25,338 bases of DNA, taken from Myxococcota bacterium. Lineage in GTDB: Bacteria; Myxococcota_A; UBA796; GCA-2862545. Below, one piece after another: positions 1,396 through 25,338 of this stretch (position 1 is its first letter; every line of letters starts with the position of its first letter). Position numbers and translations under genes: made by a program. Under the pieces are notes generated by a model, which saw only the letters and a list, made by a program, of their open reading frames with translations, ran no database searches and was not told the origin of the DNA. Where the stretch lies: the NCBI GenBank assembly GCA_039208735.1, contig JBCCQY010000139.1:1-25338 (forward strand). The letters are read 5' to 3'.

Positions 1396-2016
1396 ATGAG
1401 CGGGGTGGATAAGCCCACGGACCAAACCGACGGTGAGAAGACGCAGCCCATCGACGCTGCGCCGGCCGCGGATGGACTCAACGTGACCGACGATGATGAA
1501 CTCGACCGCACCGAAGAACTGACCCCAGAAAAGCAGCGCCTTCGTGACCTCGAAGGCCAGCTTTCGGAGGCTCAGGCTCGCCTGCGTGCCGTGTCGAAGA
1601 AGTACACGGAATTGGAAGGAGACAACAAGGCTTTCCGCGAACGCATGGAGGCCCGGGCCAAAGTCGATGCCGAACAGCGCGCCTTCACCATGGCCAAAGC
1701 GTTCTTCGATCCGGTGATGAACCTGCAACGCTCGCTCGAGAACGCCCCGGCGGGGGACTTCGGGCAGGGTTTGCAGATGGTCAATCGGCAGTTCATGGAA
1801 GCGTTGCGCAAGCTCGGTCTTGAAGAGGTGCCCGGCGTCGGTGCCCCCTTCGATCCCACGGTTCATGAAGCGCTGGCCATCACACCCGTGACCGACCCCG
1901 AGCAGGACGGCAAGGTGCTCGTCGTCCATCAGAACGGTTTCGTGGTCAAGGGCAAGGTCTTGCAGGCCGCACAGGTCGTGATTGGCAAGCTGCAGGACGC
2001 GGCTGGCGACGCCTGA
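1396..2016 (+). CDS. grpE: Nucleotide exchange factor GrpE
   Basis: GGAGG SD before ATG 1396. Acidic N-terminus and coiled coil, then GrpE signatures GAPFDPTVHEA and QNGFVVKGKVLQAAQVVI. Confidence 0.92.
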   Translation: MSGVDKPTDQTDGEKTQPIDAAPAADGLNVTDDDELDRTEELTPEKQRLRDLEGQLSEAQARLRAVSKKYTELEGDNKAFRERMEARAKVDAEQRAFTMAKAFFDPVMNLQRSLENAPAGDFGQGLQMVNRQFMEALRKLGLEEVPGVGAPFDPTVHEALAITPVTDPEQDGKVLVVHQNGFVVKGKVLQAAQVVIGKLQDAAGDA

Positions 2017-2020
2017 CCAC

Positions 2021-3250: not shown

Positions 3251-3320
3251 CAAAGACCGATCGGGTGTCATGAGGCAGAGGAGCGAGGTATCCTCCCGCT
3301 CGTTCCCCCCGGACGGAGTC

Positions 3321-10266: not shown

Positions 10267-10292
10267 GAGCAGGGTACAGCGGGGGGAGTTCG

Positions 10293-11039
10293 ATGATCGG
10301 CTGGGCGGTCGTGGCGATCGCGAAGGACCCCACGGCGGTCGTGCAATCGCTCACCGACGAGGTGACGATCGATTGGACGAACCTCGAGGTCGAGGTGCAA
10401 GCCACCGCCCAGGCCCCGGCGGTGGGTTCCCTGCGGGCCATCGAGGAACTCGCCCGACAGAACATCGCCAAGACCTTGCAACGGGCGCTGCCAAGGGTCC
10501 CTCTGACGGCGACGATCGCACTGGGGGCCATTCAGACCGACCCCGTTCTTGACGCTCCCATCGCGGCCCGTCAGGCACGCTGGCAGGTCACGGAGGCCCA
10601 GTACGCCACGTCGGGCACCGTTCGGCTCACCGCAAGCCTGTCCCTCGCAAGCGTGGTCAAGCCGTGGGTGTTGGCCAACGCACTCCCCGAGGCCACCTCG
10701 GCCGTCGATCCACCGTTTACGGGCGTGCTTGTGGATGCGCGGGCTGTCGACGTGTCGATGGCCGTAGCCCCTCGCATCGTCACCGAGGACGGTGAAGTCC
10801 TGTTCGATGGTCGACTCGATGCGTTTTCCGCCGTCACACGAGCGCCCGTTCGGTACGTCGCCTCTCCCGCCCACCGCAGGGCCGATCAAGCCGGTGAACG
10901 GCCCTGGCGCCTTCTTGCTACGGCGGTTCAGTCCGAGGTGGATCTGATTGTGGCCGAGGTTGACCCAGCCGAACGGGCATCGGCGCTGCAGGTCCTCCAA
11001 TCGGGCGAAATCATCATCGTGGTCCGCGATGGCCGCTGA
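10293..11039 (+). CDS. Exported protein resembling LPP20-family-associated proteins
   Basis: GGGAG SD before ATG. Motifs IDWTN, FTGVLVDAR and PRIVTEDGEV. Sits in an operon between dnaE and lipB. Confidence 0.6.
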   Translation: MIGWAVVAIAKDPTAVVQSLTDEVTIDWTNLEVEVQATAQAPAVGSLRAIEELARQNIAKTLQRALPRVPLTATIALGAIQTDPVLDAPIAARQARWQVTEAQYATSGTVRLTASLSLASVVKPWVLANALPEATSAVDPPFTGVLVDARAVDVSMAVAPRIVTEDGEVLFDGRLDAFSAVTRAPVRYVASPAHRRADQAGERPWRLLATAVQSEVDLIVAEVDPAERASALQVLQSGEIIIVVRDGR

Positions 11040-11655
11040 TCTCGCCGTTCAGTGGTTAGGCCGCCTGTCCTTTGGCTGGGCCGAGCGGTTGCAACGCGGC
11101 CGCCGACGCAGCATCATCGCTGGCGTTGCCCCAGAAGTCCTCTGGCTACTCGAGCATGATCCCGTGATCACCTTGGGCCGTCGTGGTGGTGAGGTCTTGG
11201 CGAACCCTTCGATCCCCGTGGTGGCGACCGACCGCGGTGGACTCGCGACCTACCACGGCCCGGGCCAGCTCGTCGGATACCTGCTGGTCGACGTCGACGC
11301 ACGGCGATTGGGGGTTCGGCGACTCGTCGAAGCCATCGAGGACGGACTGATCGCCTGGCTCACCACGAAGGGGATCCTGGCCGACCGTCGACCTCATGCA
11401 CCTGGAGTGTGGGTTGGTGATCACAAGATCGCGGCGCTGGGCCTGCACTTTTCGCGTGGCGTGAGCATGCATGGCTTTGCCTTGAACCTCGAACCGCACC
11501 TCGCCGCCTACCAAGCGATCGTCCCCTGTGGCTTTTCAAGCGACCAGGTCACCTCGGTTGCCAAGTTGAAAGGCGGCTCCTGGCCCGTCTTCGATCACGC
11601 CGCTGACGTGGGGCAGTACGTGCGCGACGCCATCGTGTCGAAGCCAGGACCTTGA
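11029..11655 (+). CDS. lipB: Lipoyl(octanoyl) transferase LipB
   Basis: LEHDPVITLGRR, DRGGLATYHGPGQLVGY, KIAALG, HGFALN and IVPCG. Confidence 0.95.
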   Translation: MAADLAVQWLGRLSFGWAERLQRGRRRSIIAGVAPEVLWLLEHDPVITLGRRGGEVLANPSIPVVATDRGGLATYHGPGQLVGYLLVDVDARRLGVRRLVEAIEDGLIAWLTTKGILADRRPHAPGVWVGDHKIAALGLHFSRGVSMHGFALNLEPHLAAYQAIVPCGFSSDQVTSVAKLKGGSWPVFDHAADVGQYVRDAIVSKPGP

Positions 11656-11680
11656 CCTCCTCCCAAGTGGGGATTAGCTC
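11652..11680 (+). promoter_or_regulatory. Putative promoter for tRNA-Val (TTGACC-N17-TAGCTC)
   Basis: Good -35 hexamer and 17-nt spacing, ending 11 nt before the tRNA. Confidence 0.45.
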
Positions 11681-11691
11681 TAGCGGAGCAA

Positions 11692-11763
11692 AGGCTCGTA
11701 GCTCAGTGGGAGAGCACCGCCCTGACACGGCGGGGGTCCGCGGTTCAAATCCGCGCGAGCCTA
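11692..11763 (+). tRNA. tRNA-Val(GAC), CCA not encoded
   Basis: Cloverleaf: acceptor AGGCTCG/CGAGCCT, D stem GCTC/GAGC, anticodon stem CCGCC/GGCGG with GAC at 11724-11726, T arm CGCGG-TTCAAAT-CCGCG, discriminator A. Confidence 0.96.
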
Positions 11764-11766
11764 CTC

Positions 11767-11788
11767 CTTCCCTTTCAAGGGAAGTGTT
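11767..11788 (+). terminator. Hairpin just 3' of tRNA-Val (weak terminator or processing signal)
   Basis: CTTCCCT-TTCA-AGGGAAG followed by TGTT. Confidence 0.35.
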
Positions 11789-11892
11789 CAATCGGCGCTC
11801 ACCCGCGCCAACGCCCCGACCCGGAAGTGTCTCGTGCGGTCTTGTCGCGTGGGCTATTCTGACCGTAGTTGCCTCCAACCGAGAGAGGGACT

Positions 11893-12555
11893 GTGCGCAG
11901 AGGACCCCGCCGCCGGCCCCAACAGGAGCCCGATCGCAACGAATTGCGGGTGAACCGACGGATCCGCGCTCCTCGGGTTCTCGTCATTGATGAGCAGGGG
12001 AACAAGCTGGGTGAGTTCCTCATCGAGGACGCGGTCCGGCTCGCCGAAGACCGTGGACTCGACCTGATCGAGGTCTCTCCCAACACCCGTCCCGTCGTGT
12101 GTCGCATCCAGGACTACGGCAAGCTCAAATACGAGCGCAAGAAGAAGGCCTCCCAAGCCCGAAAGAATCAGGTTCAGGTGCAGACCAAGGAAGTCAAGCT
12201 GCGCCCCAAGACCGACGACCATGACATCGCGGTGAAAGTTCGCCACTCCCGACGTTTCCTCGAGGAGGGCAACAAAGTCAAGGTGACCATCCGCTTCCGG
12301 GGACGGGAACTTGCTCACCGTGACATTGGGGCCCAGCAGTGCTTGCGGGTGGCCAAGGAGTGTGAGGATCTCGGCAACATCGAGATCCGACCTCGGATGG
12401 ACGGGCGGCAGATGTTCATGATCATCGCGCCCAACGCCAAGACTCGGGCTCGTGCGGTGGCCCGAGCCGAGCAGGCGGCCGCCGAAGGGGAAGTCGAAGA
12501 CGCGGCGGACGAAGGACTCGAAGATGACCTCGACGACGAGGCCGCGGAAGAGTAA
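11893..12555 (+). CDS. infC: Translation initiation factor IF-3 with acidic C-terminal extension
   Basis: RVNRRIRA, GLDLIEVSP, DYGKLKYE, KEVKLRPKT and KVKVTIRFRGRE. GAGGG precedes GTG 11893; in-frame TAG at 11866. Confidence 0.95.
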   Translation: MRRGPRRRPQQEPDRNELRVNRRIRAPRVLVIDEQGNKLGEFLIEDAVRLAEDRGLDLIEVSPNTRPVVCRIQDYGKLKYERKKKASQARKNQVQVQTKEVKLRPKTDDHDIAVKVRHSRRFLEEGNKVKVTIRFRGRELAHRDIGAQQCLRVAKECEDLGNIEIRPRMDGRQMFMIIAPNAKTRARAVARAEQAAAEGEVEDAADEGLEDDLDDEAAEE

Positions 12556-13356: not shown

Positions 13357-13857
13357 ATGTGGTGGTGGTTGGTCCTGGCCTGCAACAACGAAGAGCCAGT
13401 TGCCGAGCGCGTCAACGCCGAAGAGCAAGATCTCATCGTACTGGTTCGCCAGGCCTGCACCGATGACGAAAGCGCCACCCTGTCGCTGCCGCTGTTGTCG
13501 AATGTGGGCCGAATTGAAATCGGGGTGGCCGAGGTCACGCCAGGGTGCGCATCCGTAGGTGACACCTACGTGCTCGACGTTGAACTCTTTGATGAGTTCG
13601 AAGAAGTCGTCGATGAAACCCAGATCATCGCGCTTCCTGAGGCGGTTAGCGACCTCGACGGGGATGGCATGATCGAGGCTCGCGACGCGGCGACCTACTT
13701 GTTGGTCCGCGATGAGTTCGACCCGGGCGTGTTCTCCATCATGCTCCAAGCGCTTGGCGCCGCAACGGAAGAGCGCGACGATCGGTGGCGCGTCGAACTC
13801 CTCGCCTTCCCCGAGGAGCCCGAAGACGAAGGTGGTGGCGGGCTGTTGGGCGGCTAG
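13357..13857 (+). CDS. Acidic putative lipoprotein with an EF-hand-like Ca-binding loop
   Basis: GGAG SD, lipobox-like VLAC at Cys9 and a DLDGDGMIEARD loop. Its stop overlaps the amnA stop in CTAG (13854-13857). Confidence 0.65.
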   Translation: MWWWLVLACNNEEPVAERVNAEEQDLIVLVRQACTDDESATLSLPLLSNVGRIEIGVAEVTPGCASVGDTYVLDVELFDEFEEVVDETQIIALPEAVSDLDGDGMIEARDAATYLLVRDEFDPGVFSIMLQALGAATEERDDRWRVELLAFPEEPEDEGGGGLLGG

Positions 13858-14768
13858 GCGATGACGTCTCGGTCGCCCGAGAACGCCTCGACCTCATCTT
13901 CGTCGAATTCCTTCTCACCAATTCCATCGTCGGAAGGGGTCAGGGCCACGACCGCGCCTCCGGTTCCGACCAGCGCCTCGTAGGCGAAGATCTCGCCTCG
14001 GTACCGGTTGTGCTGCCCCATCGCCGCCGACCAGAACCAAAACGACTTGAAGTTCTGGACCTTGGGCACACGAATCTGCTGGTGCACAACACGAGACAGC
14101 TGTGCGGCGTCCTCGAGCCGACCCTCGCCCAAGAATTCCAAGAGCTTCGCATTCCATTCTTCATCTTTGGCAGAATGAATGCGATCTTCGGACGGGTCGA
14201 TCCAATCGGTAAACAACCGATTCGATAGGGTGCCCACCACGATGACGGCGACGCGACGACCCGCCGCACTTGCCGCATCGCGGCACGCCTTGCCCAGCAC
14301 GATGGTCTCCCCGCGGTCCGCGTACACATTGCTGCTCACAATGACCGCAGGAATTGCGTTGTCGGGATTTAGGAGCTTGAGGGCGACCACCGAGCCCGTG
14401 TCGATGGGAAAGCCATGGTAGGCGACGGTTCGCATGTGAAGTCCGCGCTCGGTTCCCGCCTTAGCCAACGTGTCGGCGAACGCCGCATCGATCCGAAACT
14501 GGTAGGGAATGCTGCCGAGGTCGTGAAAGAGTTCGTCAACATGGACCCACTCGGGCGTGGGGTGCGCCTGGATCTGGTGGCCAATCACCGACGGCCACAT
14601 GGTCGAATACACCAGTAGGACGTCTGGTTTTTGGGCCAGGACATGCTGGCGAGCGGCTTCGAAGCCTTCCCGGAGTCGCGTGTAGCCTGCGCTCTTCTCG
14701 GGACAGAGCAGGGGATGCGGAAGCCCGGGCACGAGCACCCCGACAACCGGACGGTCGGTCTCCTCCAT
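13854..14768 (-). CDS. amnA: 2-aminophenol 1,6-dioxygenase alpha-subunit-like (non-catalytic LigB fold)
   Basis: LVPGLPHP, KPDVLLVYSTMW, HVDELFHDLG, GFPIDTG and IDPSEDRI match AmnA/CnbCa motifs as recalled. TGATG coupling to amnB. Confidence 0.85.
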   Translation of the reverse strand: MEETDRPVVGVLVPGLPHPLLCPEKSAGYTRLREGFEAARQHVLAQKPDVLLVYSTMWPSVIGHQIQAHPTPEWVHVDELFHDLGSIPYQFRIDAAFADTLAKAGTERGLHMRTVAYHGFPIDTGSVVALKLLNPDNAIPAVIVSSNVYADRGETIVLGKACRDAASAAGRRVAVIVVGTLSNRLFTDWIDPSEDRIHSAKDEEWNAKLLEFLGEGRLEDAAQLSRVVHQQIRVPKVQNFKSFWFWSAAMGQHNRYRGEIFAYEALVGTGGAVVALTPSDDGIGEKEFDEDEVEAFSGDRDVIA

Positions 14769-15655
14769 CACGCACGCTCCGCGGGGGGAGCCCAGCCCAC
14801 CACGGCGTTGCCCGTGCCAATGACGGTGCCATAGCCAAACAGCTCGCCTGGGTAGGTGGGGTAATCGAGGGCTGCGATCAACCACGTGAGCGCGCCGGAG
14901 TCGGTCTCGGCCACCGCGTGTTCCGTGAACTCGGGCATGAGGTCGACGATCTGCCGCGTTTGACCTTTGCGCATCAGCTCGATGAGCTTCATGTCCCAGA
15001 GGTACTGGTGGTGGTTGGTGATGTGCTCGTGCGTCATGTCCTCGGGAACATCCGGCTCAACCACGAAGTGACGATGCGACAGGGACTCGCTCGCCAACAA
15101 GACCACCTTGCGGTCGCTCTCCTCGATGGCCTTGCGGGTGGCTTTCCCCAACGCGACCATCTGCTCCTGCATGACCTCGACGCTGTAGAAGTGGGTGGCC
15201 CGCTGCGACGACACAGCCACGATCGGCTTGTCGAACTCTGGCCGGGTGAGGTGGCAGCTCACCAACGTGCCGTAGTCGACTCGAAAATCGGGATTCCGCA
15301 TCATCTTGGTCACCAGCCCCGCTTCGCCAGCCGATGCGCACAGCTGCTCGGCGAGCGGCACATCCACCTTCAACTTGTAGTGGTAGCGAAACAGGTTGGG
15401 AAACACAGGATCGACCGACAACGAGTCGAACTCGGGCACTCCCAAGAAGTGGGTTCCGATATAGGTCTGCCAGTGGGGTGAAAGTACGACGATGGTGTCG
15501 TAGTCGATGCCGTCAAGCACCTGCCGCAGGCGTTCATAGCCCCAGCGCAACGTTTCCCAGCCGCATTCCGCCGATGGTTCGTTTTGCGGTGGATTGTCGG
15601 CGTAGACGAGGTGCGGAGGATGCGGCGCGAGCGCGCCATAGACGATGCGTCCCAT
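14768..15655 (-). CDS. amnB: 2-aminophenol 1,6-dioxygenase beta (catalytic) subunit-like
   Basis: APHPPHLVYADNPPQNEP, SPHW, SVDPVFPNLFR, TKMMRNPDFRVDYGT, LSH and GYGTVIGTGNAV. Fe ligands His/His/Glu and catalytic His/Tyr are present. Confidence 0.9.
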   Translation of the reverse strand: MGRIVYGALAPHPPHLVYADNPPQNEPSAECGWETLRWGYERLRQVLDGIDYDTIVVLSPHWQTYIGTHFLGVPEFDSLSVDPVFPNLFRYHYKLKVDVPLAEQLCASAGEAGLVTKMMRNPDFRVDYGTLVSCHLTRPEFDKPIVAVSSQRATHFYSVEVMQEQMVALGKATRKAIEESDRKVVLLASESLSHRHFVVEPDVPEDMTHEHITNHHQYLWDMKLIELMRKGQTRQIVDLMPEFTEHAVAETDSGALTWLIAALDYPTYPGELFGYGTVIGTGNAVVGWAPPAERA

Positions 15656-15657
15656 GC

Positions 15658-16794
15658 TCAATCCTTCTCGACAGGGGGCAAATGGTCTTCCCAGTCCCAA
15701 TACCAGCGGTCCGAATCGGGATCCCACTCGTCCCAGGTGGCTACGTGCGAGAGCAATTCCACGCGGTCAGGAGGCACAATGCCGGGCACAAAGAACGCTT
15801 TTTGGCGATGGAGCGGGTAGGGATTCCGAAGTTCAAATCCCAAAACCCCCAGGATGGCGCGGGCCACGTACCAGGTGGCCTGGGGATTCCACCCGTGCGC
15901 AATCTTGACGGCAACGCCAAGCCCATCCGGGTAGTCGGGGTGGACGATCGCCATGCCAAGCAGCCCGTCGGCCCCCTCCTTGGCGATGATGTTGCCCTTA
16001 CCGGCCTTGATCACCGTCGAGTCGAGTCGGTTGAAGCCGCCCACGAGATCAGGGTGCTGGGTCATCGCCGACCAGATCCAATCGTCATCGCGGGTGCGCA
16101 CCAAGCCCGCAAAGCAGCGGGCCAGCTCGGTCACGGTGTTGGAAACGGTGGGCAAGCCACACCCGTCGCGCGCGACCCGCAAGGGGGTCCACTCCGGACC
16201 GAGGAAGCACCGGAGCTGGTTGATGAACGCAGGAAACAGCGGGTGTGACGGCATTGTATAGGCGACCCGGGGCCAACCCTTCTTACGGCAGGCATGAAGG
16301 ATCGCGGCATGCTCCCCCGAACAGGTGTGGTACCAACGGCGCGGCCGCCGGACCTGTCGGCCGAACTGCACAAGCGGCACATCCAGCGGTGTGCGCATGA
16401 GGCCCCGTTCGGAAGGCGTGAGCAACGATTGGGCGGCCCGGACATGTTCGGTGTCGCCGTTGTGGCTCGCCACGGCAATCGCGTGCTGCTCGGTGGTGCA
16501 GTCCTTCAGCTCATCGACGAAGATCTTCATCGTCAGCGGCTTCATCATCGAACGGCCGTAGCAAAGCACATTGCCGCCGAACGAGTGCACCACCCGATCC
16601 CCACTCACCCAGGCCACCGCGCCGTGGATGGTGGTCTCGCTCACGCCGTTTCGACGGTAATCGACGAGCGGTTCCCACTCGACATCCCGACCTGTCGCGA
16701 TCCCTTTGATGGACTCCCCAAAGGGAGACATGGGGTAGATCGCCCGTCCTGGGCGCCCCGTCGTCACCGCACTGGGCCGATGATCATCGCTCAC
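15658..16794 (-). CDS. Class 3 (Rhizobium etli-type, asparaginase II family) hydrolase with altered motif
   Basis: RSMMKP (SxxK), ASHNG, TCSGEH, DGCGLP and AKEGADG. GGAGG lies 6 nt before GTG 16794, which overlaps the kynB end. Confidence 0.85.
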   Translation of the reverse strand: MSDDHRPSAVTTGRPGRAIYPMSPFGESIKGIATGRDVEWEPLVDYRRNGVSETTIHGAVAWVSGDRVVHSFGGNVLCYGRSMMKPLTMKIFVDELKDCTTEQHAIAVASHNGDTEHVRAAQSLLTPSERGLMRTPLDVPLVQFGRQVRRPRRWYHTCSGEHAAILHACRKKGWPRVAYTMPSHPLFPAFINQLRCFLGPEWTPLRVARDGCGLPTVSNTVTELARCFAGLVRTRDDDWIWSAMTQHPDLVGGFNRLDSTVIKAGKGNIIAKEGADGLLGMAIVHPDYPDGLGVAVKIAHGWNPQATWYVARAILGVLGFELRNPYPLHRQKAFFVPGIVPPDRVELLSHVATWDEWDPDSDRWYWDWEDHLPPVEKD

Positions 16795-17437
16795 GCAGAT
16801 CCTCCAATTGGCCGCCATCATCCCTTAGGACCGCCCGAACCGGGGACGCATCAACGCCCACCAAAGGCAACGGAAGTGCGACCAGGGTGTAGATCCCAGG
16901 CTCGACGTGGTCAAGCACGACCCCCTCGAGGATCGCTAGGTCGTGGCGTGCAATCGCGTTGTGGGAAAGCAGCTCTCGGTCATCGCACAGGTCCACCGAC
17001 GGGGTGTCCAGTCCCACCAACACGACGCCATGACCGACCAAATGCTCGATCAGCTCGGGCGATAGGGCAGCGAAGTCTTCGTTGAAGACCTGCGGGTCGG
17101 GGTAGGTGCCCGTGCGGAAGAGCACGCGCGAAGCCTTGGGCGCATGCGGCAAGTGGGCAGGTTGAATGCGGGTGTTGCGGGGTACGTTCACCGCCATCAC
17201 CTCACAGGGACCGAAGTAGCGTTCGAGCGGACGAGCCGCGATGCCCTGCCCGTCGCGGGCGTAGTGATTCGGGGCGTCGGTATGGGCGCCCACATGCACG
17301 GTGGTGCGGATGGATGACAGCGTCAGGTTGTCGCCCTTGGCCATCGACAACGCAACGTCTCGGGAAAACCCAACATCACCCGGCCAAACGGCAATCTTGT
17401 CGTCGATGGGAGGCGAAATGTCGATGAGGCGTGTCAT
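16784..17437 (-). CDS. kynB: Cyclase-family kynurenine formamidase
   Basis: DISPP, VWPGD, HVGAHTDAPNH metal motif, GLDTPSVD, ILEG and DASPVRAVLR. ATGA overlap with the RidA gene. Confidence 0.85.
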   Translation of the reverse strand: MTRLIDISPPIDDKIAVWPGDVGFSRDVALSMAKGDNLTLSSIRTTVHVGAHTDAPNHYARDGQGIAARPLERYFGPCEVMAVNVPRNTRIQPAHLPHAPKASRVLFRTGTYPDPQVFNEDFAALSPELIEHLVGHGVVLVGLDTPSVDLCDDRELLSHNAIARHDLAILEGVVLDHVEPGIYTLVALPLPLVGVDASPVRAVLRDDGGQLEDLRER

Positions 17438-17865
17438 GGAATCCAGGCGATGCACTTGAGTTCGACAGCGATGGGCGTCGGTAACGCTCGCACCGCCACC
17501 GTCGTCCGCGTCGGCCGATATGGGCCGATGAGTTCGGCGTAGACTTCGTTGAACGCCTTGAAGTCGCGGTCCATATCGACCAAGAACACCGTGATGTCGA
17601 CCAGGTTGGCAAGGGTGGCTCCGGATGCCTTGAGCACCGCCTCGAGGTTCGCCACCACCGCACGGGTCTGCGCGGCGACATCATAGTCCAGCGGCTGGCC
17701 GGCGGCGTCTCGAATGGGGCCGCCGGGAATCGCATCGGTGCCCGGCTGCCGAGGCCCCATGCCAGACAAAAACAGCATTGGGCCCACTTGGCGCGCGTGG
17801 GGGTACGCCCCGACTGGAGCCGGGGCCCCTTGGGCGTCGACAGCCCGAGAATCCGAATCGCTCAC
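17434..17865 (-). CDS. RidA-family protein, 2-aminomuconate deaminase (AmnD/NbaF)-like
   Basis: PVGAYPHAR, LSGMGPRQPG, RTTV (catalytic Arg) and LPTPIAVELK. Has the extended loop typical of the aminomuconate deaminase subgroup. GGAGAGG SD. Confidence 0.85.
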   Translation of the reverse strand: MSDSDSRAVDAQGAPAPVGAYPHARQVGPMLFLSGMGPRQPGTDAIPGGPIRDAAGQPLDYDVAAQTRAVVANLEAVLKASGATLANLVDITVFLVDMDRDFKAFNEVYAELIGPYRPTRTTVAVRALPTPIAVELKCIAWIP

Positions 17866-17889
17866 AACCTCTCCGGGAGAAACGGCAGC

Positions 17890-18315
17890 TTACCAGCTGC
17901 CCACGTTGGGCATCGAGGCCCACGGCTCTCGGATCTCGAGCGCTCCGCCACGTTGGAGCAGTTCAATCGAGATCGCATCCGGGCTGCGAACGAAGGCCAT
18001 TCGCCCGTCACGCGGCGGCCGCGCGATGGTGACGCCGTTTTCTTGAAGCTTCGTACACAAGGCGTAGATGTCGTCGGTCGCAAAGGCCAAATGGCCAAAG
18101 TTGCGGCCGCCCGTGTATGGCTCCTCCTGATCCCAGTTGTAGGTCAACTCGATCATCGCCGAGTCGTCCTCTTGGCCCGTTGCGAGAAAGACGAGGGTGT
18201 ATCGTCCCTTCTCACTCTCACTGCGCCGAACCTCGCGCAGGCCAAGCAAGTCGCAAAAGAAGTGTAGGGCCTGGTCGAGGTCACGCACGCGGATCATCGA
18301 GTGTAGGAATCGCAT
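17890..18315 (-). CDS. gloA: Lactoylglutathione lyase (glyoxalase I, VOC family)
   Basis: [23 protein letters not shown] and [21 protein letters not shown]. Confidence 0.9.
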
Positions 18316-18348: not shown

Positions 18349-21300
18349 TCAGTTCTGACCCACCGGATGGTGCTCGGAGGAGGGCACCTCCTGGTCGCCA
18401 GCGGGGGTGATCTCGTCGAAGACGACCTTGCCATCTCGCACCACAGCGTGCAATGCACGGCGCTTCTGGCCCGTGCGCAGCATCGAAGCCCCCAAGGGCT
18501 CCGCGACCAACTCGTCGATTGCCCGCAAGGCAGGCCGAGCCCCCATGCCGGCTCCGCCGACGCTGCTCGCCGGTTGGTAGCGCGCACAGAGTTCGGCCAC
18601 CTCTTCCGACCAGGTAAGCGTGATGCCGGTGAGGGCCGCGCGCTCCTGGAGCTGGGTGAGGTGGATGCTGACAATCTTGACCAGGTCGGCTTCTTCGACA
18701 TCGCGGAACACGACCACCCCGTCGAGCCGATTGAGCAGCTCGGGACGGAAGCGGTCCTGGGCCTTCGCCATGACCGCAGCCTTGCGAGAAGCCACGGTGT
18801 TGCCACCAAAACCGAGGCGTCCCTTCCCAGACACTTCCGAACCCGCGTTGGTGGTCAGGATGAAGAAGGCTTCGCGCGCATGCACCTTGCGGCCTTCAGC
18901 ATCGGTGACCACGCCTTCATCGAAGAGCGACAGGAACATCGCCTGCACATCAGGGTGCGCCTTTTCGAACTCGTCGAGCAGCACCACCGCGTAGGGACGG
19001 CGCCGTAGCGGCCCCGTGAGCTGGCCCTCTTCGCCGTGGCCCTGGTAGCCCGGAGGCGCCCCCAAGAGGCGACTGCTCGTGAACCGATCGCCGTACTCGG
19101 ACATGTCGAGCTTGACGAGCGCGTTTCCTTCGGGGAACAGGAAGTCCGTCAGGGCGCGAGCGAGTTCGGTCTTGCCAACCCCACTGGAGCCCGCGAACAG
19201 GAAGACGCCACGAGGACGCCGCGGATGACGAAGACCTGAACGCGCGAGACGCACTGCCGATGCGAGCTCGGACACGGCGTCTTCTTGGCCAATCACGCGA
19301 GCGCGCAGGAAGTCTTCGAGCGAATCGAGTCGTTCGCGTTCCGCCGCGGTCAGATCGTGAACCGGCACGCTCGTGCGCTCGCTGACGATGCGAGCCACCC
19401 GCTGGCCATCGACGACATGCGGTTCTGCCCCGAGGCTTACGTCCGCACACGCTTCATCCATGAGGTCGAGCGCCTTGTCGGGCAGGCGCCGTTCAGGCAC
19501 GAAGCGCACCGCAAGTCGTACACAAGCTTCGATCGCATCTCGCGTGATGCTGACCTTGTGATGCTCTTCGTACAGGTGCTTGATCCGCAGCAGCAGCTCC
19601 ATGGCCTCTTCGACCGAAGGCTCCTCCACCGGAATCGGCTGGAAGCGACGTTCGAGAGCCGAATCGGTTTCGAAGTGCTTGCGGTACTCTGCCACCGTGG
19701 TGGCGCCGATGACCGTGACCTCGCCGCGCGCGAGCGCCGGCTTGAGGATGTTGGCGGCATCAAGCGAGCCCCCTTCGGTGCGCCCCGCTCCCACCAAGGT
19801 GTGGATCTCATCGATGAAGAGCACGATGCCGGGATTCTCGCGCGCCTCGCGGATGATGTCCTTGAGTCGCTCTTCGAAGGTGCCCCGGTACTTTGTGCCC
19901 GCGAGCAACGAACCCATCGAAAGCTCGATGAGGCGCAGGTTCTTAAGGCGTTCCGGAGCATCTTCGGCGGTGAGCGCCTGCGCCACGCCTTCGACAATCG
20001 CGGTCTTGCCGACCCCTGGGTCGCCGAGAAGGAGCGGATTGGCCTTGAGTCGACGCACCAGCGTCTTCATGACGGCTCGGATCTCGCCCGAACGACCGAC
20101 GACCGGCGACAACTTGCCCGATCGCGACAGCGCCGTCAGGTCACGACCCTGCTCATCGAGCGTCGGCGTCGGGGATTCGCCCTCTTCATCGCTTGATTCA
20201 GGTTGGAGATTCTGCTCGCAGAACGCCTTTCCTTCGCGCGCAAACTGGCTGTCAGGCTCGATTTCGAGGGCCTTGTTCCACAGGGGAAGTGCCTCACGGT
20301 AGCGCTGCAGCGTGTTGAGCGCGGCCGCCTTGCCTTGGATCGCAAAGGCATGCCGAGACCCAACCTCGAGGGCCCGATCGAACCACACCAAGCAACCCGG
20401 CAGGTCGCCCAGCATGCGCATGCACTCGGCCCGCCCCGCAATCGCGTAGAGGTAGTCGTCCTTCAGCTTGAGGGCGCGCTCATACGCCTTGATCGCCTCT
20501 TCGTACCGCTCGTTCTTGCGGTAGGCCTCGCCGATGTTGGTGGCGGCGTGGAAGTGATCCGGATCGATGACGAGGCAACGCTCATAGGCCTCAATCGCCT
20601 TGTCGAGCTGCTTGTCTTCTTCGTAGGCCATGCCCAGCCGCAGCGCGGCTTCGGCGTAGGTGTCGTCGTAGCGAAGGGCTTCTTCGAAACAGGTGATGGC
20701 CTGCGAGAAGTTCCGCTCCTTGAAGAAGATGCGGCCCCGGTCCAGTTCATCACGGGCTCGCACGCGATCCGTCCGGGAGCGAGGACCGGCGAGACTGGTA
20801 GGCGGCGCCGCCATCGGCAACGCAGGTTCGTCGCGCCGTCCCGGCCCTGCAGGGCTCTGGCCAATGCGCCGTCGCGGAGCGCTGGTGATCGTTCGATCGG
20901 GCGCCGACTCCCCAAGACCCGCCCGACACTGGGCCAATCCGCGCTTCACGAAAGCCGCATTTGGGTTCTCGCGCAGGGCCGCAAGCCACAACGGCAGGGC
21001 TTCATCGAAGCGTCGCAGCGAATTCAGCGTCGCCGCCTTCCCACACAAGGCCAGGTAGTGACGAGGGCGGAGGACCAGCGTGCGGTCAAAACCATCCAGG
21101 GCTTCCTGGAACCGTCCCAACATTCGTAGGGCCTCGGCGCGGCCCGCCGTGGCCCGTACCTCGTCAGGACGCAGCTGGATCACCTCATCATAGGCTTCGA
21201 TCGCCGCGAGGAAGTCGTTGTTGCGCCGAAGTGCATCCGCACGATGGCACGCCGCATCGAGGTGATCCGGCTCGCGTTGCAACACTTCGTCGAAAGCCCG

Positions 21301-22335
21301 AATCGCCGCACGATACTGCCGATCTTCGCTGTGGGCGAGGCCCAGCAAGTACCACGCACTCGTCCAACTCGGATCCTCTTCGGTGGCGTGGCGAAGTGAG
21401 GTGGCCGCCTCGGGGAAGCGGCCCTGCTGCATGAGCGACCGCCCCTGCTCATAAGGCCCTCGCGCCCGATCCCGGGCTCCCGCCCGCACATCGACCGCGC
21501 GGTCGACCGATTCGCCAGACACGGATTCGCCCGCGAGAGCGGCTTCGGCTCGCTTGAGACCGAGCACCGCAGCCTGAGCGCTGGGCTCGATGGCCAAGGC
21601 CTGCCGCCAGATGGGAAGCGCCTCCGCCCACCGTCCCAGCTCATTGAGCGCTGACGCCTTGCCCCGAAGCGCTACCACATGGGTTGGACGCCCTTGGAGG
21701 GCGCGAGAGTACCATTCGACCGCATCGTCGAACCGTCCCTGTTGTCGCAGCGCATCAGCCCGGCCGGTCATCGCTCGGACATGTTCGGGCCGCTGGGCGA
21801 TGGCCCGGTCGTAGTCCGCCACGGCCTCGTCGAACCGCGCCGCCTGACGCAGCACGTCGGCCCGACCCACGAGCACGTCGGGATCATCTCCCAACGCCTT
21901 CAACAGCCGCCCGTAGGTGGAGACGGCCTGATCAAACCGCCGCATCCGCTCATAGACGCGTGCCAGATCGGCGAGTACGTCCTCATCGTTCGGCGAGATG
22001 GCCAACGCGGCCTCGAACGCCTCGGCAGCTTCGGCGGCGCGTCCGTCGGCGGCGAGCGCCCGCCCCCAGTTGCGCTGGGACTCCGCGCGGACCCGGTCCG
22101 GATCGGCGGGAGGAGGTACCGTGACGCGCCGACCGGTGCGCAACCCGTCCCGCGCCTCGGTCAGCCCGGCGGTTGCAAACGCCGACTCCGGATCGAGAGC
22201 GGCCGCCTGTTCCCACAACGCAATCGCGGGGCCGAACTGGCCAAGTGCGTTGAGAGCCGCCGCCTTTCCGCGCACCGCAAAGGTGTGCTCAGGCGACTTG
22301 GCGAGCGCCCGGTCGAACCATTCGAGCGCGGCCCT
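18349..22335 (-). CDS. TPR-array fused Clp/Hsp100 double-ring AAA+ ATPase (ClpA-like), 5'-truncated at the junction
   Basis: At least 16 complete TPRs. D1 has GDPGVGKT, GTKYRG, FIDEIH, ALERRF and LPDKALDL. No M-domain. D2 has GSSGVGKT, PPGYQG, LLDEFEKAH and RPELLNR, plus an LGF loop. The upstream limit is approximate. Confidence 0.9.
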   Translation of the reverse strand, partial: RAALEWFDRALAKSPEHTFAVRGKAAALNALGQFGPAIALWEQAAALDPESAFATAGLTEARDGLRTGRRVTVPPPADPDRVRAESQRNWGRALAADGRAAEAAEAFEAALAISPNDEDVLADLARVYERMRRFDQAVSTYGRLLKALGDDPDVLVGRADVLRQAARFDEAVADYDRAIAQRPEHVRAMTGRADALRQQGRFDDAVEWYSRALQGRPTHVVALRGKASALNELGRWAEALPIWRQALAIEPSAQAAVLGLKRAEAALAGESVSGESVDRAVDVRAGARDRARGPYEQGRSLMQQGRFPEAATSLRHATEEDPSWTSAWYLLGLAHSEDRQYRAAIRAFDEVLQREPDHLDAACHRADALRRNNDFLAAIEAYDEVIQLRPDEVRATAGRAEALRMLGRFQEALDGFDRTLVLRPRHYLALCGKAATLNSLRRFDEALPLWLAALRENPNAAFVKRGLAQCRAGLGESAPDRTITSAPRRRIGQSPAGPGRRDEPALPMAAPPTSLAGPRSRTDRVRARDELDRGRIFFKERNFSQAITCFEEALRYDDTYAEAALRLGMAYEEDKQLDKAIEAYERCLVIDPDHFHAATNIGEAYRKNERYEEAIKAYERALKLKDDYLYAIAGRAECMRMLGDLPGCLVWFDRALEVGSRHAFAIQGKAAALNTLQRYREALPLWNKALEIEPDSQFAREGKAFCEQNLQPESSDEEGESPTPTLDEQGRDLTALSRSGKLSPVVGRSGEIRAVMKTLVRRLKANPLLLGDPGVGKTAIVEGVAQALTAEDAPERLKNLRLIELSMGSLLAGTKYRGTFEERLKDIIREARENPGIVLFIDEIHTLVGAGRTEGGSLDAANILKPALARGEVTVIGATTVAEYRKHFETDSALERRFQPIPVEEPSVEEAMELLLRIKHLYEEHHKVSITRDAIEACVRLAVRFVPERRLPDKALDLMDEACADVSLGAEPHVVDGQRVARIVSERTSVPVHDLTAAERERLDSLEDFLRARVIGQEDAVSELASAVRLARSGLRHPRRPRGVFLFAGSSGVGKTELARALTDFLFPEGNALVKLDMSEYGDRFTSSRLLGAPPGYQGHGEEGQLTGPLRRRPYAVVLLDEFEKAHPDVQAMFLSLFDEGVVTDAEGRKVHAREAFFILTTNAGSEVSGKGRLGFGGNTVASRKAAVMAKAQDRFRPELLNRLDGVVVFRDVEEADLVKIVSIHLTQLQERAALTGITLTWSEEVAELCARYQPASSVGGAGMGARPALRAIDELVAEPLGASMLRTGQKRRALHAVVRDGKVVFDEITPAGDQEVPSSEHHPVGQN

Positions 22336-22405
22336 GGACCCTTGCCTCGATTTCGGGGAAGTTGCCGAGGTATATAACGCCGCCTGGTCCCAAGGGAAAG
22401 ACCCG

Positions 22406-23080
22406 ATGCGCTGGATCATTCTGCTCTTTCTGGCGGCGACGCTGGCGCCCACGCAATCGCAGGCCGAGGGTGAGCGGGCGGGCGACTTCGACTATTATGT
22501 GCTGGCGTTGTCCTGGTCGCCGAGCTTTTGTGCGCTGGAAGGCGCGGCGCGCGGCAACCCGCAATGCGACCGGTCTTTGGGCTGGGTGATGCACGGGCTT
22601 TGGCCTCAATATGACATGGCCTCAAGTAGCGAAGCGGTAGGCCAAAGAAATGGCGGTTGGCCGAGTTACTGCCCCACCGTCCACCGCAACCCATCCCGTG
22701 CAGACACCGCAGCCATGGCCGATATCATGGGCTCTGGCGGGTCCGCCTGGCACCAGTGGAACAAGCACGGCCGCTGCACGGGGCTCTCGTCAGACGATTA
22801 CTACGCCCTGTCGCGGCTGGCCTTCGATCGGGTCAACCGGCCCGAGGTGCTGCGCCGGCTCGACCGCTCGGTCACGCTGCCCGCCGCGGTGATTGAAGAG
22901 GCGTTTCTCGAGGCCAACTCTGGCTGGACCTCGGACATGCTCACCATCACCTGCAAAGGCGGCCGCATCGCCGAGGCGCGGCTGTGCCTCACCCGCGACC
23001 TCACCCCGCGCCCCTGCGCCGCCGACGTGCGCCGTGACTGCCGGGCCACCGACGCGCTGCTTGATCCCATCAACGAGTAG
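22406..23080 (+). CDS. Ribonuclease T2 family, secreted
   Basis: Signal peptide, FDYYVLALSWSP, CAS I HGLWP, CAS II HQWNKHGRC and conserved Cys residues. Confidence 0.93.
   Translation: MRWIILLFLAATLAPTQSQAEGERAGDFDYYVLALSWSPSFCALEGAARGNPQCDRSLGWVMHGLWPQYDMASSSEAVGQRNGGWPSYCPTVHRNPSRADTAAMADIMGSGGSAWHQWNKHGRCTGLSSDDYYALSRLAFDRVNRPEVLRRLDRSVTLPAAVIEEAFLEANSGWTSDMLTITCKGGRIAEARLCLTRDLTPRPCAADVRRDCRATDALLDPINE
22616..22651. repeat. Short palindromic element inserted in-frame in RNase T2
   Basis: TGGCCT...AGGCCA inverted repeat around GCGAAGC. Adds about 12 residues (MASSSEAVGQRN) after HGLWPQYD. Confidence 0.55.
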
Positions 23081-23089
23081 GGCCTGGGG

Positions 23090-23122
23090 CTTCTTCTCGT
23101 CCAAAATATCCCCGCCGGAGGC
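23090..23122. repeat. Intergenic repeat-like element (CTTCTTCTCGTCCAAAATATCCCCGCCGGAGGC)
   Basis: Resembles a dispersed intergenic repeat recalled from Rhodobacteraceae. Only one copy here. Confidence 0.35.
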
Positions 23123-23170
23123 TCCCACACTGTCCGTCCGCGCGCAGATCGTGCCTGATACGTCCGACCT

Positions 23171-23192
23171 GTAGGGCGGGACTTGTCCCGCC
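23171..23192 (+). repeat. GTAG-family REP element
   Basis: GTAG followed by the perfect palindrome GGCGGGAC-TT-GTCCCGCC, between convergent genes. Confidence 0.7.
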
Positions 23193-23203
23193 GCCCACCC
23201 TTG

Positions 23204-24064
23204 TCACTCGGCCGCCAGCGGAACCTCGTCGCGGCCGCTTTGGGTGATCTTGCCCATCACCCGCCGGATCAGTGCCTGGAAGGCCGCAAAGTTCGCGTTT
23301 GGCCGGATCAGCCGCTCATCCATGTAAAGCGAGCGGTCGATCTCCACCTGCACCACATGCTGGCCGTTCGACGGGCGACCATAATGCTGCGCGGTGTAGG
23401 CCCCAGCAAAGGGCGTGTTGCGCACCACCCTCAAGCCTTCGGCGGCAAAGGCATCTTCGATCCGCGCCACGACCTCTTCGCTCGCCGCGGCGCCGAACCG
23501 ATCCCCAAGTACGATCTCGGGCTTCCGGCCTCGGCCCGCCACGGCCGCTTCGATCGCCTCGTGCGGCATCGAGTGGCAATCCACCAGCACGGCCTCGCCG
23601 AACGTGGCGCGCGTGTCGTCCAGAAGCGTTTGGAGTTGCTCGTGATAGGGCCGCCAGTGGTCGCGGATGCGGCCACGCGCCTCGTCGAGTGCGATCTTGC
23701 CGCGATAGATTGCCCGACCGTTTGACACGACGCGCGGGATCACACCCAATCCGCTGGTCACACGCGGATTGTGCGCCATCTTGCGCACGCCCTCGATCAG
23801 CGCCGGGTCCAGCTCTTCGCTGGCGCGGTTCAGGTCGATATAGGCCCGCGGCGCTGTCGCGGACAACAGCACAGCCCCAAATTCCGGCGCATCGGCAAAA
23901 AGCATGTCGACGAACGCGTCCTCAGACGACCGAATCGCCTGCTCGTCCAAAAGCGAGGCCCGCAGGAACGCCCAAGGGTAATCCCGTCCGCTGTGCGGCG
24001 AAGCAAAGACGACCGATGTCGTCTGCTCTTTTGGTTCGCGCAACGTGAAAGGGGCGACCTTCAT
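23204..24064 (-). CDS. N-formylglutamate amidohydrolase family protein
   Basis: SPHSGRDYP, SEDAFVD, PRAYIDLNR, DCHSMP, LGDRFG, NTPFAG and QVEIDRSLYMDE. Confidence 0.93.
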   Translation of the reverse strand: MKVAPFTLREPKEQTTSVVFASPHSGRDYPWAFLRASLLDEQAIRSSEDAFVDMLFADAPEFGAVLLSATAPRAYIDLNRASEELDPALIEGVRKMAHNPRVTSGLGVIPRVVSNGRAIYRGKIALDEARGRIRDHWRPYHEQLQTLLDDTRATFGEAVLVDCHSMPHEAIEAAVAGRGRKPEIVLGDRFGAAASEEVVARIEDAFAAEGLRVVRNTPFAGAYTAQHYGRPSNGQHVVQVEIDRSLYMDERLIRPNANFAAFQALIRRVMGKITQSGRDEVPLAAE

Positions 24065-24219
24065 TCGGGCTCCTGTTGTGGACTGCTACCTTATCTAGGA
24101 TCATGGGCGCCAAATCCAGCGCCGCAGCGCAGCTTTGGCGTTTATGTGACATCCCGTCTCGTGAAAATCCAGCGGACTGCCCCCCACAATTGCCCAAAGA
24201 CTGCGCGTCGCAAATTTGC

Positions 24220-24248
24220 TTGAACCGTGGGGGCAACCCTTTTATACG
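24220..24248 (+). promoter_or_regulatory. Putative promoter for the second tRNA-Val (TTGAAC-N17-TATACG)
   Basis: 17-nt spacing and an alphaproteobacterial-style -10. Confidence 0.5.
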
Positions 24249-24283
24249 CTCGCAGACCGGCGGGGCGCCCTGCCCGGTGGACC

Positions 24284-24358
<75 letters not shown>

Positions 24359-24467
24359 TCGCCCCTCGGCTTGGCCGCAGGGGCCTCAGATATAACCGGC
24401 GCGGATGTGCCGAACCGTAACGCGGCGGGGCCTTGTGATCCGCCATAACCTTGGAAGGAGCAGGTCC

Positions 24468-24593
24468 ATGAAGGTCCGTAACTCGCTTCGTTCGCTCAAA
24501 AGCCGGCACCGTGATTGCCGGGTCGTGCGCCGGAAAGGCCGCGTCTACGTGATCAACAAGACGCAGCGTCGCTTCAAAGCCCGCCAGGGCTGA
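24468..24593 (+). CDS. rpmJ: 50S ribosomal protein L36, type B (zinc-free)
   Basis: [49 protein letters not shown]. Confidence 0.97.
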
Positions 24594-24630
24594 TCGGCAC
24601 CTGGGCGGCTGCCCTGGTATTGCCCGAACG

Positions 24631-24660
24631 GGCCGCCCATGGGGGCGGCCTTTTGCGTTT
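24631..24660 (+). terminator. Rho-independent terminator after rpmJ
   Basis: GGCCGCCC-ATGG-GGGCGGCC followed by TTTTGCGTTT. Confidence 0.8.
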
Positions 24661-24669
24661 GCGGGCAGT

Positions 24670-25338
24670 TCAGTTGCTTGATCCGGCCAATAGCAAAACA
24701 ATCGTGTCGCGGGTCACATACCCGGTCGCCGGCTGATCGTTCGCCCTTTGGAACTTGCGCAGTGCGCGCCGGGTCGCGCGGGTGAACCTGCCATCGACCT
24801 TGCCGGTTTCAAGCCCCTGCGCCTGAAGCTGCACCTCGATCAGTTGCCGGGTAAACTGATTTAGGCTCAACCGCTCTTCTTCATTGCGCGCGGCCTCTAC
24901 GACCTCAGGCGGCACTTCGGGGTTCGACAGTGCCGAGATGCGCGCCTCGGCCTCCGCCGCAAAGATCCCCGTCGGATAGGTGCCCAGGTAGTCCCGGTAA
25001 CTCGCAATTGTGCCCGTCATGACCGCTTTGTCCCAAGCCAGCCGCTCTGCCTCCTCCGCCTCGCGGCGCCGTTGCCGCTCTAACTCCGCCAGACGCGACT
25101 GAGCTTCATCGGCGAAGAGGCCGTCTGGAAACCTGTTGAGATAGGCACGCAAACCCTCCTCGGTTTCGCCCCGGCCCGTTTCAGTCCACCAGGCCCTGTC
25201 GCGCGCTTCCGCCAAGCGGCGGCGTTCTTCTGCCTCCCTCTGCAACTGCGCCGCGCGCGCCTGCGCCGCCGCTTGCAGCCGTGCCACTTGGTTGCCGGTC
25301 AAATACCCCGTGGTGGGATCGCCCAGGCTGCGCTGAAA
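24670..25338 (-). CDS. Peptidoglycan-binding domain protein, 5' end outside the window
   Basis: The frame is open to the window edge (FQRSLGDPTTGYLT). Two YL..[FY]P.G.FA.EA repeats and a C-terminal PG-binding motif VDGRFTRATRRALRKFQ...ATGY. Confidence 0.85.
   Translation of the reverse strand, partial: FQRSLGDPTTGYLTGNQVARLQAAAQARAAQLQREAEERRRLAEARDRAWWTETGRGETEEGLRAYLNRFPDGLFADEAQSRLAELERQRRREAEEAERLAWDKAVMTGTIASYRDYLGTYPTGIFAAEAEARISALSNPEVPPEVVEAARNEEERLSLNQFTRQLIEVQLQAQGLETGKVDGRFTRATRRALRKFQRANDQPATGYVTRDTIVLLLAGSSN

Follow-up and report, generated by a model that had tools for sequence, protein, structure and literature searches.

The stretch of DNA analysed here, referred to as the window, is the 25,338-nucleotide (nt) contig JBCCQY010000139.1 from the assembly of an uncultured Myxococcota bacterium (GCA_039208735.1; 9.4 Mb, 288 contigs, 92.7% complete). 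On its minus strand, positions 18349-22452 form a single open reading frame (ORF) of 1367 codons encoding TPR-Clp, a protein in which an N-terminal part built of tetratricopeptide repeats (TPRs) runs into the two AAA+ modules (D1 and D2) of a Clp/Hsp100 ATPase. Many Pfam TPR families match over approximately residues 40-745 (TPR_1, E = 1.2e-73) and are followed by AAA (807-938), AAA_lid_9 (946-1021) and AAA_2 (1079-1244); PF10431 (ClpB_D2-small) is present in the precomputed family list of the protein. Past a short acidic linker, the sequence TPTLDEQGRDLT occupies residues 762-773, and the catalytic elements follow in the expected places. In D1 these are: Walker A, GDPGVGKT (810-817); the pore loop, KYRG (854-857); Walker B, LFIDEIH (878-884); and the lid (946-1021). 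In D2 they are: Walker A, GSSGVGKT (1088-1095); the pore loop, GYQG (1135-1138); Walker B, VLLDEFEKA (1157-1165); sensor-1, TTNAG (1200-1204); and sensor-2, GARP (1304-1307). The features of a class I Clp/Hsp100 protein are present: both D1 and D2, their Walker A and B motifs, the pore-loop tyrosines and ClpB_D2-small.

Two domains that commonly accompany such a core were looked for. The first is the N-terminal Clp_N domain. The ORF gives no match to PF02861 at E 0.01 or better in Pfam, and its N-terminus is occupied by TPR modules. The second is the coiled-coil M-domain. The NCBIfam ClpA model aligns to TPR-Clp in one continuous stretch (residues 745-1325 against model positions 149-720 of 734), and the ClpB and ClpV models each align in two pieces. 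The spacing from one Walker A to the next is 278 amino acids (aa), as compared to 277 in the ClpA of the same genome, 405 in its ClpB and more than 300 in the ClpC-type sequences used. In alignments to solved structures, the ClpC M-domain (residues 408-473) has no counterpart. As judged from these alignments, TPR-Clp is a class I Clp/Hsp100 protein in which four five-TPR modules stand in for Clp_N and the M-domain is absent. A first-pass annotation made from the letters alone had described more than 700 aa of TPRs passing through an acidic linker directly into D1, with no Clp_N, no M-domain, intact Walker A and B sets, two tyrosine pore loops and an LGF loop. Translation and the profile searches bear out each of these elements, and every motif that it named was located in the ORF.

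Table 1. Features of the TPR-Clp gene in the window, with their conservation among 49 family members that have four TPR modules
Feature	Positions	Strand	Residues and basis	Mean pairwise identity	Columns conserved at >=90%
Genuine TPR-Clp coding part in the window	18349..22332	-	ORF residues 41-1367 and stop codon		
Spurious 5' extension of the ORF	22333..22452	-	codons 1-40; mis-join between 22333 and 22334		
TPR module 1, last two repeats only (rest on contig C170)	22138..22332	-	alignment to P0004, P0005 and P0006	0.47	25/185
TPR module 2	21523..22104	-	117-310; match to module profile	0.43	22/186
TPR module 3	20899..21492	-	321-518; match to module profile	0.49	31/187
Pro/Arg/Ser-rich linker between modules 3 and 4	20758..20898	-	519-565; least conserved stretch		0/44
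TPR module 4, adjoining D1	20218..20757	-	566-745; most conserved module	0.64	71/190
Acidic linker, PESSDEEGES	20173..20202	-	751-760		
D1 AAA+ module	19390..20169	-	762-1021; Pfam AAA and AAA_lid_9; pairs with ClpC 156-407	0.74	147/260
D2 AAA+ module	18433..19389	-	1022-1340; Pfam AAA_2; pairs with ClpC 474-803	0.68	116/251
P-loop, RLGFGG, with predicted ClpP-docking tripeptide	18802..18819	-	1212-1217; LGF at 1213-1215; pairs with ClpC P-loop		

The TPR part is organized as four tandem modules of approximately 190 residues, which align to one another without gaps at 36-41% identity; in the full-length relative P0006 their bounds are 1-194, 195-399, 400-605 and 606-837. The first-pass annotation had pictured a giant TPR array. 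Its TPR content stands, and its continuity gives way to this arrangement of homologous modules. An AlphaFold2 model of module 4, built from 58 module sequences, has 11 helices, a mean predicted local distance difference test score (pLDDT) of 95.3 and a predicted template modelling score (pTM) of 0.88; its low-pLDDT start lies in the Pro/Arg/Ser-rich linker. On this model, each module is predicted to consist of five TPRs and a cap helix. Foldseek places module 4 nearest to consensus TPR designs, OGT, SPY, MamA, subunits of the APC/C and Hop, with a probability of 1.00 for the consensus designs, OGT and MamA. Pfam (TPR_1/TPR_2), the model and Foldseek concur in describing canonical TPR domains. 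Of these, OGT, the APC/C subunits and Hop bind peptides through their TPRs. Searches of the ESM Atlas with the TPR part as a further source of look-alikes returned generic TPR clusters only, and inspection by eye found neither carboxylate-clamp nor Asn-ladder signatures in TPR-Clp.

The linkers differ from the modules that they join. The stretch before module 4 is without conserved columns (Table 1), and in an 820-residue model of module 4 with the ATPase (mean pLDDT 84, pTM 0.48), pLDDT falls below 50 in the acidic linker (751-757), the D2 pore loop (1136-1140) and the P-loop (1210-1215). Low pLDDT in the P-loop is what docking loops show in such models. Because folded modules alternate with poorly conserved or disordered linkers, the TPR part is best described as beads on flexible strings above the D1 ring, and not as one rigid solenoid.

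The 5' end of the ORF is affected by a break in the contig. Three relatives that are 75-86% identical (P0004, P0005 and P0006) have N-termini approximately 85-125 residues longer, beginning MSDARKHFER, and the first 39-40 residues of the window ORF bear no resemblance to them; homology to full-length relatives begins at approximately position 22335. The missing 115 N-terminal aa are encoded at the end of another contig of the same assembly (G000:C170:345..1), are 84% identical to residues 1-115 of P0004 and give TPR matches in Pfam. This break was followed by aligning the window to contigs of four public sequencing runs (X1-X4), that is, to assembled contigs and not to raw reads. The best-matching run, X1, contributes a 3002-nt contig that is identical to the window up to 22333 and continues with 38 unlike letters; the last 7 of the 30 letters of this extension that were shown are the first 7 letters of C170. 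The remaining 23 letters bridge the two contigs in frame with both flanks, supplying eight codons (LRMCGQPE) between LAGKAEC and AALEWF, at a position where the relatives have LRMSGQAD or LRVSGDPD. From the other side, a contig of X2 begins at 22334, preceded by 14 letters unlike the window, and X2 depth is present from 22334 onward with none over 21000-21900. No contig among those of X1-X4 bridges 22333 and 22334.

As both sides run into unlike sequence and none bridges, the point between 22333 and 22334 is read as a mis-join and codons 1-40 as spurious; very probably, either the assembler attached 22334-25338 at this point or that sequence is a minor variant. The N-terminus of the gene would instead comprise the 115 codons on C170 and the 8 bridging codons, 123 more in all, as the alignments to relatives indicate. 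This gives a real gene of approximately 1450 codons, of which the window holds 3.3 of the 4 TPR modules. The first-pass annotation had placed the gene at 18349..22335. The gene does extend to approximately 22332, and the upper limit lies 2 bases from the break, beyond which the sequence is not of this gene. That annotation had also allowed that reads might fail to support the fusion of TPRs to AAA+. The fusion stands, with the TPR-to-AAA junction common to more than 100 homologues; the run contigs reject the window beyond 22333, which is a different join. If colinear with the window beyond 21000, the 3002-nt contig of X1 would also span the TPR-to-AAA junction at approximately 20200. Genes beyond the break probably come from a locus or organism different from that of the remaining window. 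They include an RNase T2 family protein whose N-terminus resembles a signal peptide by eye (22406-23080, plus strand), an N-formylglutamate amidohydrolase (23204-24064, minus) and a protein with a peptidoglycan-binding domain (24670-25338, minus).

The fusion recurs in a family of proteins. Among the best 120 matches in a collection of 5.8 billion proteins, one of which is the window's own, 118 carry TPR together with AAA/AAA_2; they are 47-91% identical and mostly 1300-1600 aa long. The architecture is uninterrupted on contigs of up to 6.9 Mb and in a single-contig genome of 9.4 Mb (G152). The matches derive mostly from Myxococcota or Deltaproteobacteria metagenome-assembled genomes and are labelled either 'tetratricopeptide repeat protein' or 'ClpC', both of which are inadequate. 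The core motifs are equally constant: the first pore loop, KYRG[T/V]FE, occurs in 118 of the 120 sequences and two Walker A motifs in 119. The two exceptions to the architecture are the frameshifted P0119 and P0121, a protein with Clp_N on a 2.7-kb contig. The latter was considered as a domain swap and rejected: its 767 aa on a contig of 2676 nt pass from a ClpC-like start of D1 to TPR-Clp-like sequence within a conserved stretch. It nests inside the TPR-Clp clade and is probably a chimera of metagenome assembly. Similarly, P0124 and P0126 were rejected as forms without an N-domain, as they start inside module 4 and are truncated gene calls.

Module number varies within the family. By a hidden Markov model of the module, 86 of the 120 listed proteins have four modules, 17 have three, 8 have two and 9 have one. 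The window's own protein has two entries, both among those with three on account of the contig break, and some of the shorter ones are fragments. P0094 is a natural short form with a collapsed first module and module 4, which suggests unequal recombination between modules. Module 4 is kept in the one- and two-module short forms examined. At one member locus (L084, G152:C1, 5738-12223), the stop-to-stop frame runs for 2162 codons, with the first TPR module from codon 712 only.

The distribution of the fusion across the phylum was followed with a query spanning the junction (residues 560-900) against 400 other genomes. A full-length match was found in 17 of the 20 other genomes of the window's own family (f1). 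The 380 genomes of 69 other families gave no full-length match; their matches were confined to D1. In the genomes searched, the conserved TPR-Clp proteins are accordingly limited to a single family of uncultured marine Myxococcota, and their depth, including several distant members approximately 51-57% identical, lies within that family. The gene looks to have been inherited vertically there. A candidate gammaproteobacterial member, in 'Candidatus Thiodiazotropha' (L013), was rejected, as it is a plain Clp ATPase with a separate TPR gene in another frame.

The position of TPR-Clp among Clp ATPases was addressed with the AAA+ core alone. The genome also contains a canonical clpS-clpA pair, ClpB, ClpX within a tig-clpP-clpX operon, and a second ClpP. 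Its ClpA, beside clpS, is 43% identical to TPR-Clp and forms a long, separate and distant branch. With the core as query, TPR-Clp members score at least 584 bits; next come proteins of approximately 785 aa with Clp_N and without M-domain or UVR (49-51% identical, labelled Chloroflexota/Anaerolineae), and further down UVR-bearing ClpC (43-46% identical) and then ClpB. A maximum-likelihood tree was computed by quick search on 76 cores and 605 columns, with support from the Shimodaira-Hasegawa-like approximate likelihood ratio test (SH-aLRT). It sampled every fourth family member, at most 14 sequences per outgroup type, three odd sequences, and the ClpA and ClpB of the genome itself. TPR-Clp cores form one clade (SH-aLRT 100, stem length 0.97), which is sister (99) to the clade with Clp_N and no M-domain; the opposite side of the tree holds ClpC, ClpB and the ClpA of the genome. 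TPR-Clp is therefore a clade of its own and does not group with the ClpA of its genome.

This topology indicates that an ancestor bearing Clp_N and lacking the M-domain exchanged Clp_N for TPRs at the linker between the N-domain and D1. The proposal in the first-pass annotation that the N-domain had been replaced is supported in this evolutionary sense, as the sister clade carries Clp_N and the TPR array attaches at that linker. The sister clade (P0138-P0156 and similar sequences) is sizeable in its own right: its proteins have Clp_N and the hGF loop, reach no NCBIfam equivalog cut-off, have no curated name and, as far as found, are uncharacterised. Proteins such as P0138 and P0141 share with TPR-Clp the hGF loop and the lack of an M-domain but keep Clp_N and have no TPRs.

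TPR-Clp itself reaches none of the NCBIfam equivalog cut-offs. For ClpA the scores are 608.8 against 993.15 (TIGR02639) and 475.8 against 1350 (NF008263), the ClpS-binding Clp_N domain is missing, and the ClpS of the genome adjoins the canonical clpA. For ClpB the score is 656 against 1232 (TIGR03346), and TPR-Clp departs further from that type in having LGF and no M-domain. For ClpV/TssH it is 592 against 885 (TIGR03345), and no type VI secretion system genes occur in the window or the related loci. Among solved structures the core matches ClpC, ClpB and ClpA strongly, and ClpC from Bacillus subtilis (3j3s) or Staphylococcus aureus (6em8) is the best match at 536 bits. The likeness to ClpC consists of two AAA+ rings, a KYR pore loop and an hGF P-loop at the same place, after D2 sensor-1. 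However, ClpC has Clp_N, which binds MecA, the phospho-arginine made by McsB and cyclic peptides, and a coiled-coil M-domain with UVR; TPR-Clp has neither, and ClpC falls on the other side of the tree. ClpA of E. coli (1ksf, 6w1z) resembles TPR-Clp in having D1 and D2 without an M-domain, in aligning as one stretch and in its ClpP loop, but its ClpS-binding N-domain is absent from TPR-Clp, which is not an orthologue.

Precedent for a change of N-terminal module comes from other Hsp100 proteins. The N-domain of ClpE is a zinc finger. In ClpE, ClpG and ClpL a swapped N-terminal module re-aims the ATPase and may give independence from adaptors; excerpts of two sources describe direct binding of aggregates by the ClpG N1 domain (PMC8129007) and an autonomous ClpE-ClpP (PMC13125188). 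Those proteins have small single N-domains and keep the M-domain, in contrast to the approximately 830 aa of TPR modules and lack of an M-domain in TPR-Clp. Mycobacterial VCP-1 is also a bacterial AAA+ protein with an N-terminal TPR-like domain, and PMC5515868 describes it as being of unknown function; it differs in being a 43-kDa protein with a single AAA+ module of a different clade and no ClpP loop, and is not of the Clp/Hsp100 type. No description of a TPR-Clp fusion was found in full-text literature searches, a scope outside which subscription-only papers fall, and the view that no Clp with this architecture had been characterised holds within it. What is new is that an Hsp100 lacking the M-domain carries an N-terminal module of a new class; the Hsp100/Clp core was already known.

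Coupling to ClpP is suggested by the P-loop. Of 119 aligned family cores, 118 have [L/M/V]GF in the loop that follows D2 sensor-1, usually with Arg or Lys before it, and the one other row is empty there. In the same columns hGF is found in 25 of 26 ClpC-type sequences, in all 46 of those without an M-domain and in the genome's own ClpA; it is found in none of 17 ClpB-type sequences and is absent from the genome's own ClpB. Excerpts of PMC13125188 report that ClpE and ClpC contact the hydrophobic H-sites of ClpP through their VGF P-loops and that changing VGF to GGR abolishes the interaction. By this likeness TPR-Clp may be expected to work with ClpP. The genome encodes two ClpP copies, one being that of the tig-clpP-clpX operon. 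The second (L002; G000:C23:24270-24890) has an acidic N-terminal extension and follows an arylsulfotransferase-like gene; no relative in 60 genomes of the order is more than 46% identical to it. As a dedicated partner it was rejected, having no close counterpart in 9 of 10 other genomes of the family (best 46%, in G152). Since the second ClpP is not conserved in the family, the partner would be the housekeeping ClpP. A complex prediction of D2 (1001-1340, with the family alignment) and three copies of the tig-operon ClpP scored 0.18, with the mark at 0.32, and speaks neither for nor against binding.

Downstream of the TPR-Clp gene on the same strand, after a gap of 33 nt, a catabolic-looking run (13854-18315, minus) encodes a glyoxalase-family protein, RidA, a putative cyclase (PF04199), asparaginase II and two LigB-type extradiol dioxygenase subunits. 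The glyoxalase-RidA-cyclase-asparaginase II genes are all that the window shares with the locus of a 67% identical orthologue (L004). At its true 5' end, on C170 (L096), TPR-Clp is divergent from an AhpC/TSA peroxiredoxin (478-942, plus), followed by Hsp20 (1004-1537, plus), a putative Zn metallopeptidase (1971-3251, plus), carA and carB. A search of the other TPR-Clp loci found neither Hsp20 nor the Zn peptidase; it did not extend to the peroxiredoxin. Elsewhere in the window are: another TPR protein, which runs off the window start (3-1328, plus); GrpE without an adjacent DnaK (1357-2016, plus); and an 860-aa TPR and SLT lytic transglycosylase (3021-5603, plus). The rest is housekeeping, with dnaE, lipB, infC and rplT. 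The main DnaK of the genome was considered as a source of an EEVD-like TPR ligand and rejected, as its acidic tail does not end in EEVD.

Across loci only parC/parE-like genes recur upstream, and TPR-Clp otherwise lies among metabolic genes. These parC/parE-like (GyrA/GyrB-like) genes were named from reading their sequences and not by a family scan. In four loci (L007, L008, L091 and L095) they stand directly upstream on the same strand; in L094, and in L009 and L093, which represent one and the same place, they lie no more than two called genes away. At L086 a parE-like gene is on the opposite strand, to the 3' side of the sole TPR-Clp frame (7946-12304, minus) and beyond one unmatched gene; a crude gene caller had listed this TPR-Clp frame as a plus-strand frame of the same 1453 aa.

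Considered together, the architecture and the conserved P-loop make it reasonably probable that TPR-Clp, much as the first-pass annotation proposed, works as an unfoldase coupled to ClpP and carries its own multivalent receptor made of TPRs. Its mode of action might then involve: assembly of a hexamer; capture of a client by the TPR modules; docking on ClpP; and threading. The hexamer would assemble as ClpA does since, with no M-domain, a resting state of the ClpC type would not be available. Up to 24 TPR modules per hexamer would be held on flexible tethers above the D1 pore, where extended peptide motifs, whether from clients or from a partner protein, may bind in their concave grooves. Module 4 would serve as the main site of docking or hand-off, with modules 1-3 adding avidity or range. 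The conserved [L/M/V]GF loops would dock the hexamer on housekeeping ClpP, and the KYR and GYQG pore loops would thread the tail of the bound client into it for degradation. The predicted receptor role of the TPR modules has functional parallels. In eukaryotes, the TPR grooves of Hop, CHIP, PEX5, the APC/C and OGT/SPY bind short linear motifs and pass clients to an enzyme; common descent is not implied, and there the repeats belong to a protein distinct from the unfoldase or are joined to another kind of enzyme. A bolder form of the proposal, which we regard as possible but tentative, is a self-aiming Clp protease whose tethered modules, up to 24 of them, read linear degrons or the tail of a partner without adaptors such as ClpS, MecA or SspB. 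This would amount to a bacterial, ubiquitin-free triage of the CHIP or Hop kind, which would have arisen once, in a family of marine Myxococcota, and been tuned as modules were gained and lost.

Several observations weigh against a ClpP-coupled receptor. Genomic context gives no functional hint, as no ClpP, adaptor or recurring candidate substrate lies beside the gene in 16 related loci. Three of the 20 family genomes, 86-95% complete, gave no full-length match (G202, of the same genus, G277 and G397), so either the gene is dispensable or it was missed in incomplete assemblies. The TPR fold matches are generic and offer no specific lead, and TPRs can also serve assembly or autoinhibition. By analogy with ClpC, loss of both N- and M-domains may risk uncontrolled activity, a matter on which the excerpts of PMC13125188 about resting states bear; some other control would then be needed.

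In one alternative, the TPR modules are mainly regulatory and would make up for the control lost with the N- and M-domains, either by blocking the D1 pore or driving higher-order assemblies until released by a signal, or by tethering the machine to a cellular site. Module 4 is separated from D1 by approximately 13 flexible residues and is conserved nearly like the ATPase, which would fit an intramolecular contact; excerpts of PMC13125188 describe ClpC and ClpE as using accessory domains for control of assembly; and one of the closest folds is that of MamA, a five-TPR protein that self-assembles and whose NCBIfam model TPR-Clp matches at 201 bits. However, the 820-residue model gives no fixed arrangement of module 4 and D1 (its pTM is low and the linker disordered), and four modules on long linkers exceed what a pore plug needs. 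A regulatory role is also compatible with that of a receptor and does not exclude it; as the main function we consider it unlikely. Less probable still is an unfoldase, disaggregase or remodeller that works without ClpP and is aimed by its TPRs as ClpG is by its N1 domain. According to excerpts of PMC8129007, Hsp100 proteins can work without a peptidase and alternative N-domains aim at aggregates, and the true context of the gene has two stress genes, the divergent peroxiredoxin and then Hsp20. Against this, the P-loop is retained over deep divergence and is missing from every ClpB-type control, there is no M-domain for coupling to Hsp70, and the Hsp20 adjacency was not found in the 17 other loci searched, 16 of which have TPR-Clp.

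A role in conflict with phages, with a TPR sensor fused to an AAA+ effector, appears very improbable. TPR arrays are described as common sensors in the NTPase conflict systems of multicellular bacteria in PMC7159879, and PADLOC returns PDC-M37B and DolB at 89-101 bits. These two matches cover only D2 (approximately 1025-1214); the PADLOC matches overall are partial, at D2 or short TPR stretches, and come without partner genes. No effector or mobile-element genes adjoin TPR-Clp, which stands alone, is present in 17 of 20 genomes of one family and lies behind parC/parE-like genes in several lineages and otherwise among metabolic genes. The suggestion in the first-pass annotation of a role in signalling, development or defence thus finds no support in a gene that stands alone among housekeeping genes with a vertical-looking history and partial, D2-level PADLOC matches. 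Hardly any probability attaches to the fusion being an artefact of assembly or gene calling, or a decaying pseudogene, an explanation that applies to nothing more than codons 1-40 of the window ORF. The contig is indeed mis-joined 2.1 kb upstream of the TPR-to-AAA junction, and the relatives P0119, P0124 and P0126 are frameshifted or truncated. Yet the same uninterrupted architecture recurs on contigs of megabase length and in the single-contig genome, all catalytic motifs are intact, and conservation is strong across the junction.

A ClpP-coupled unfoldase carrying its own receptor would bear on how Clp proteases are directed. N-domains and adaptors decide the targets of these proteases, and M-domains hold ClpC-type machines off. 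In TPR-Clp both controls are gone and approximately 830 residues of peptide-binding repeats stand instead, with an intact ClpP loop kept through the deep divergence of the family. This raises the question of how such a machine is restrained without control by an N- or M-domain. If the TPR modules pick clients, TPR-Clp would be a natural, modular and multivalent receptor fused to an unfoldase. As TPR modules are easy to re-design, it could offer a scaffold for engineered targeted degradation, and it would help to explain how substrate selection evolves in AAA+ proteases.

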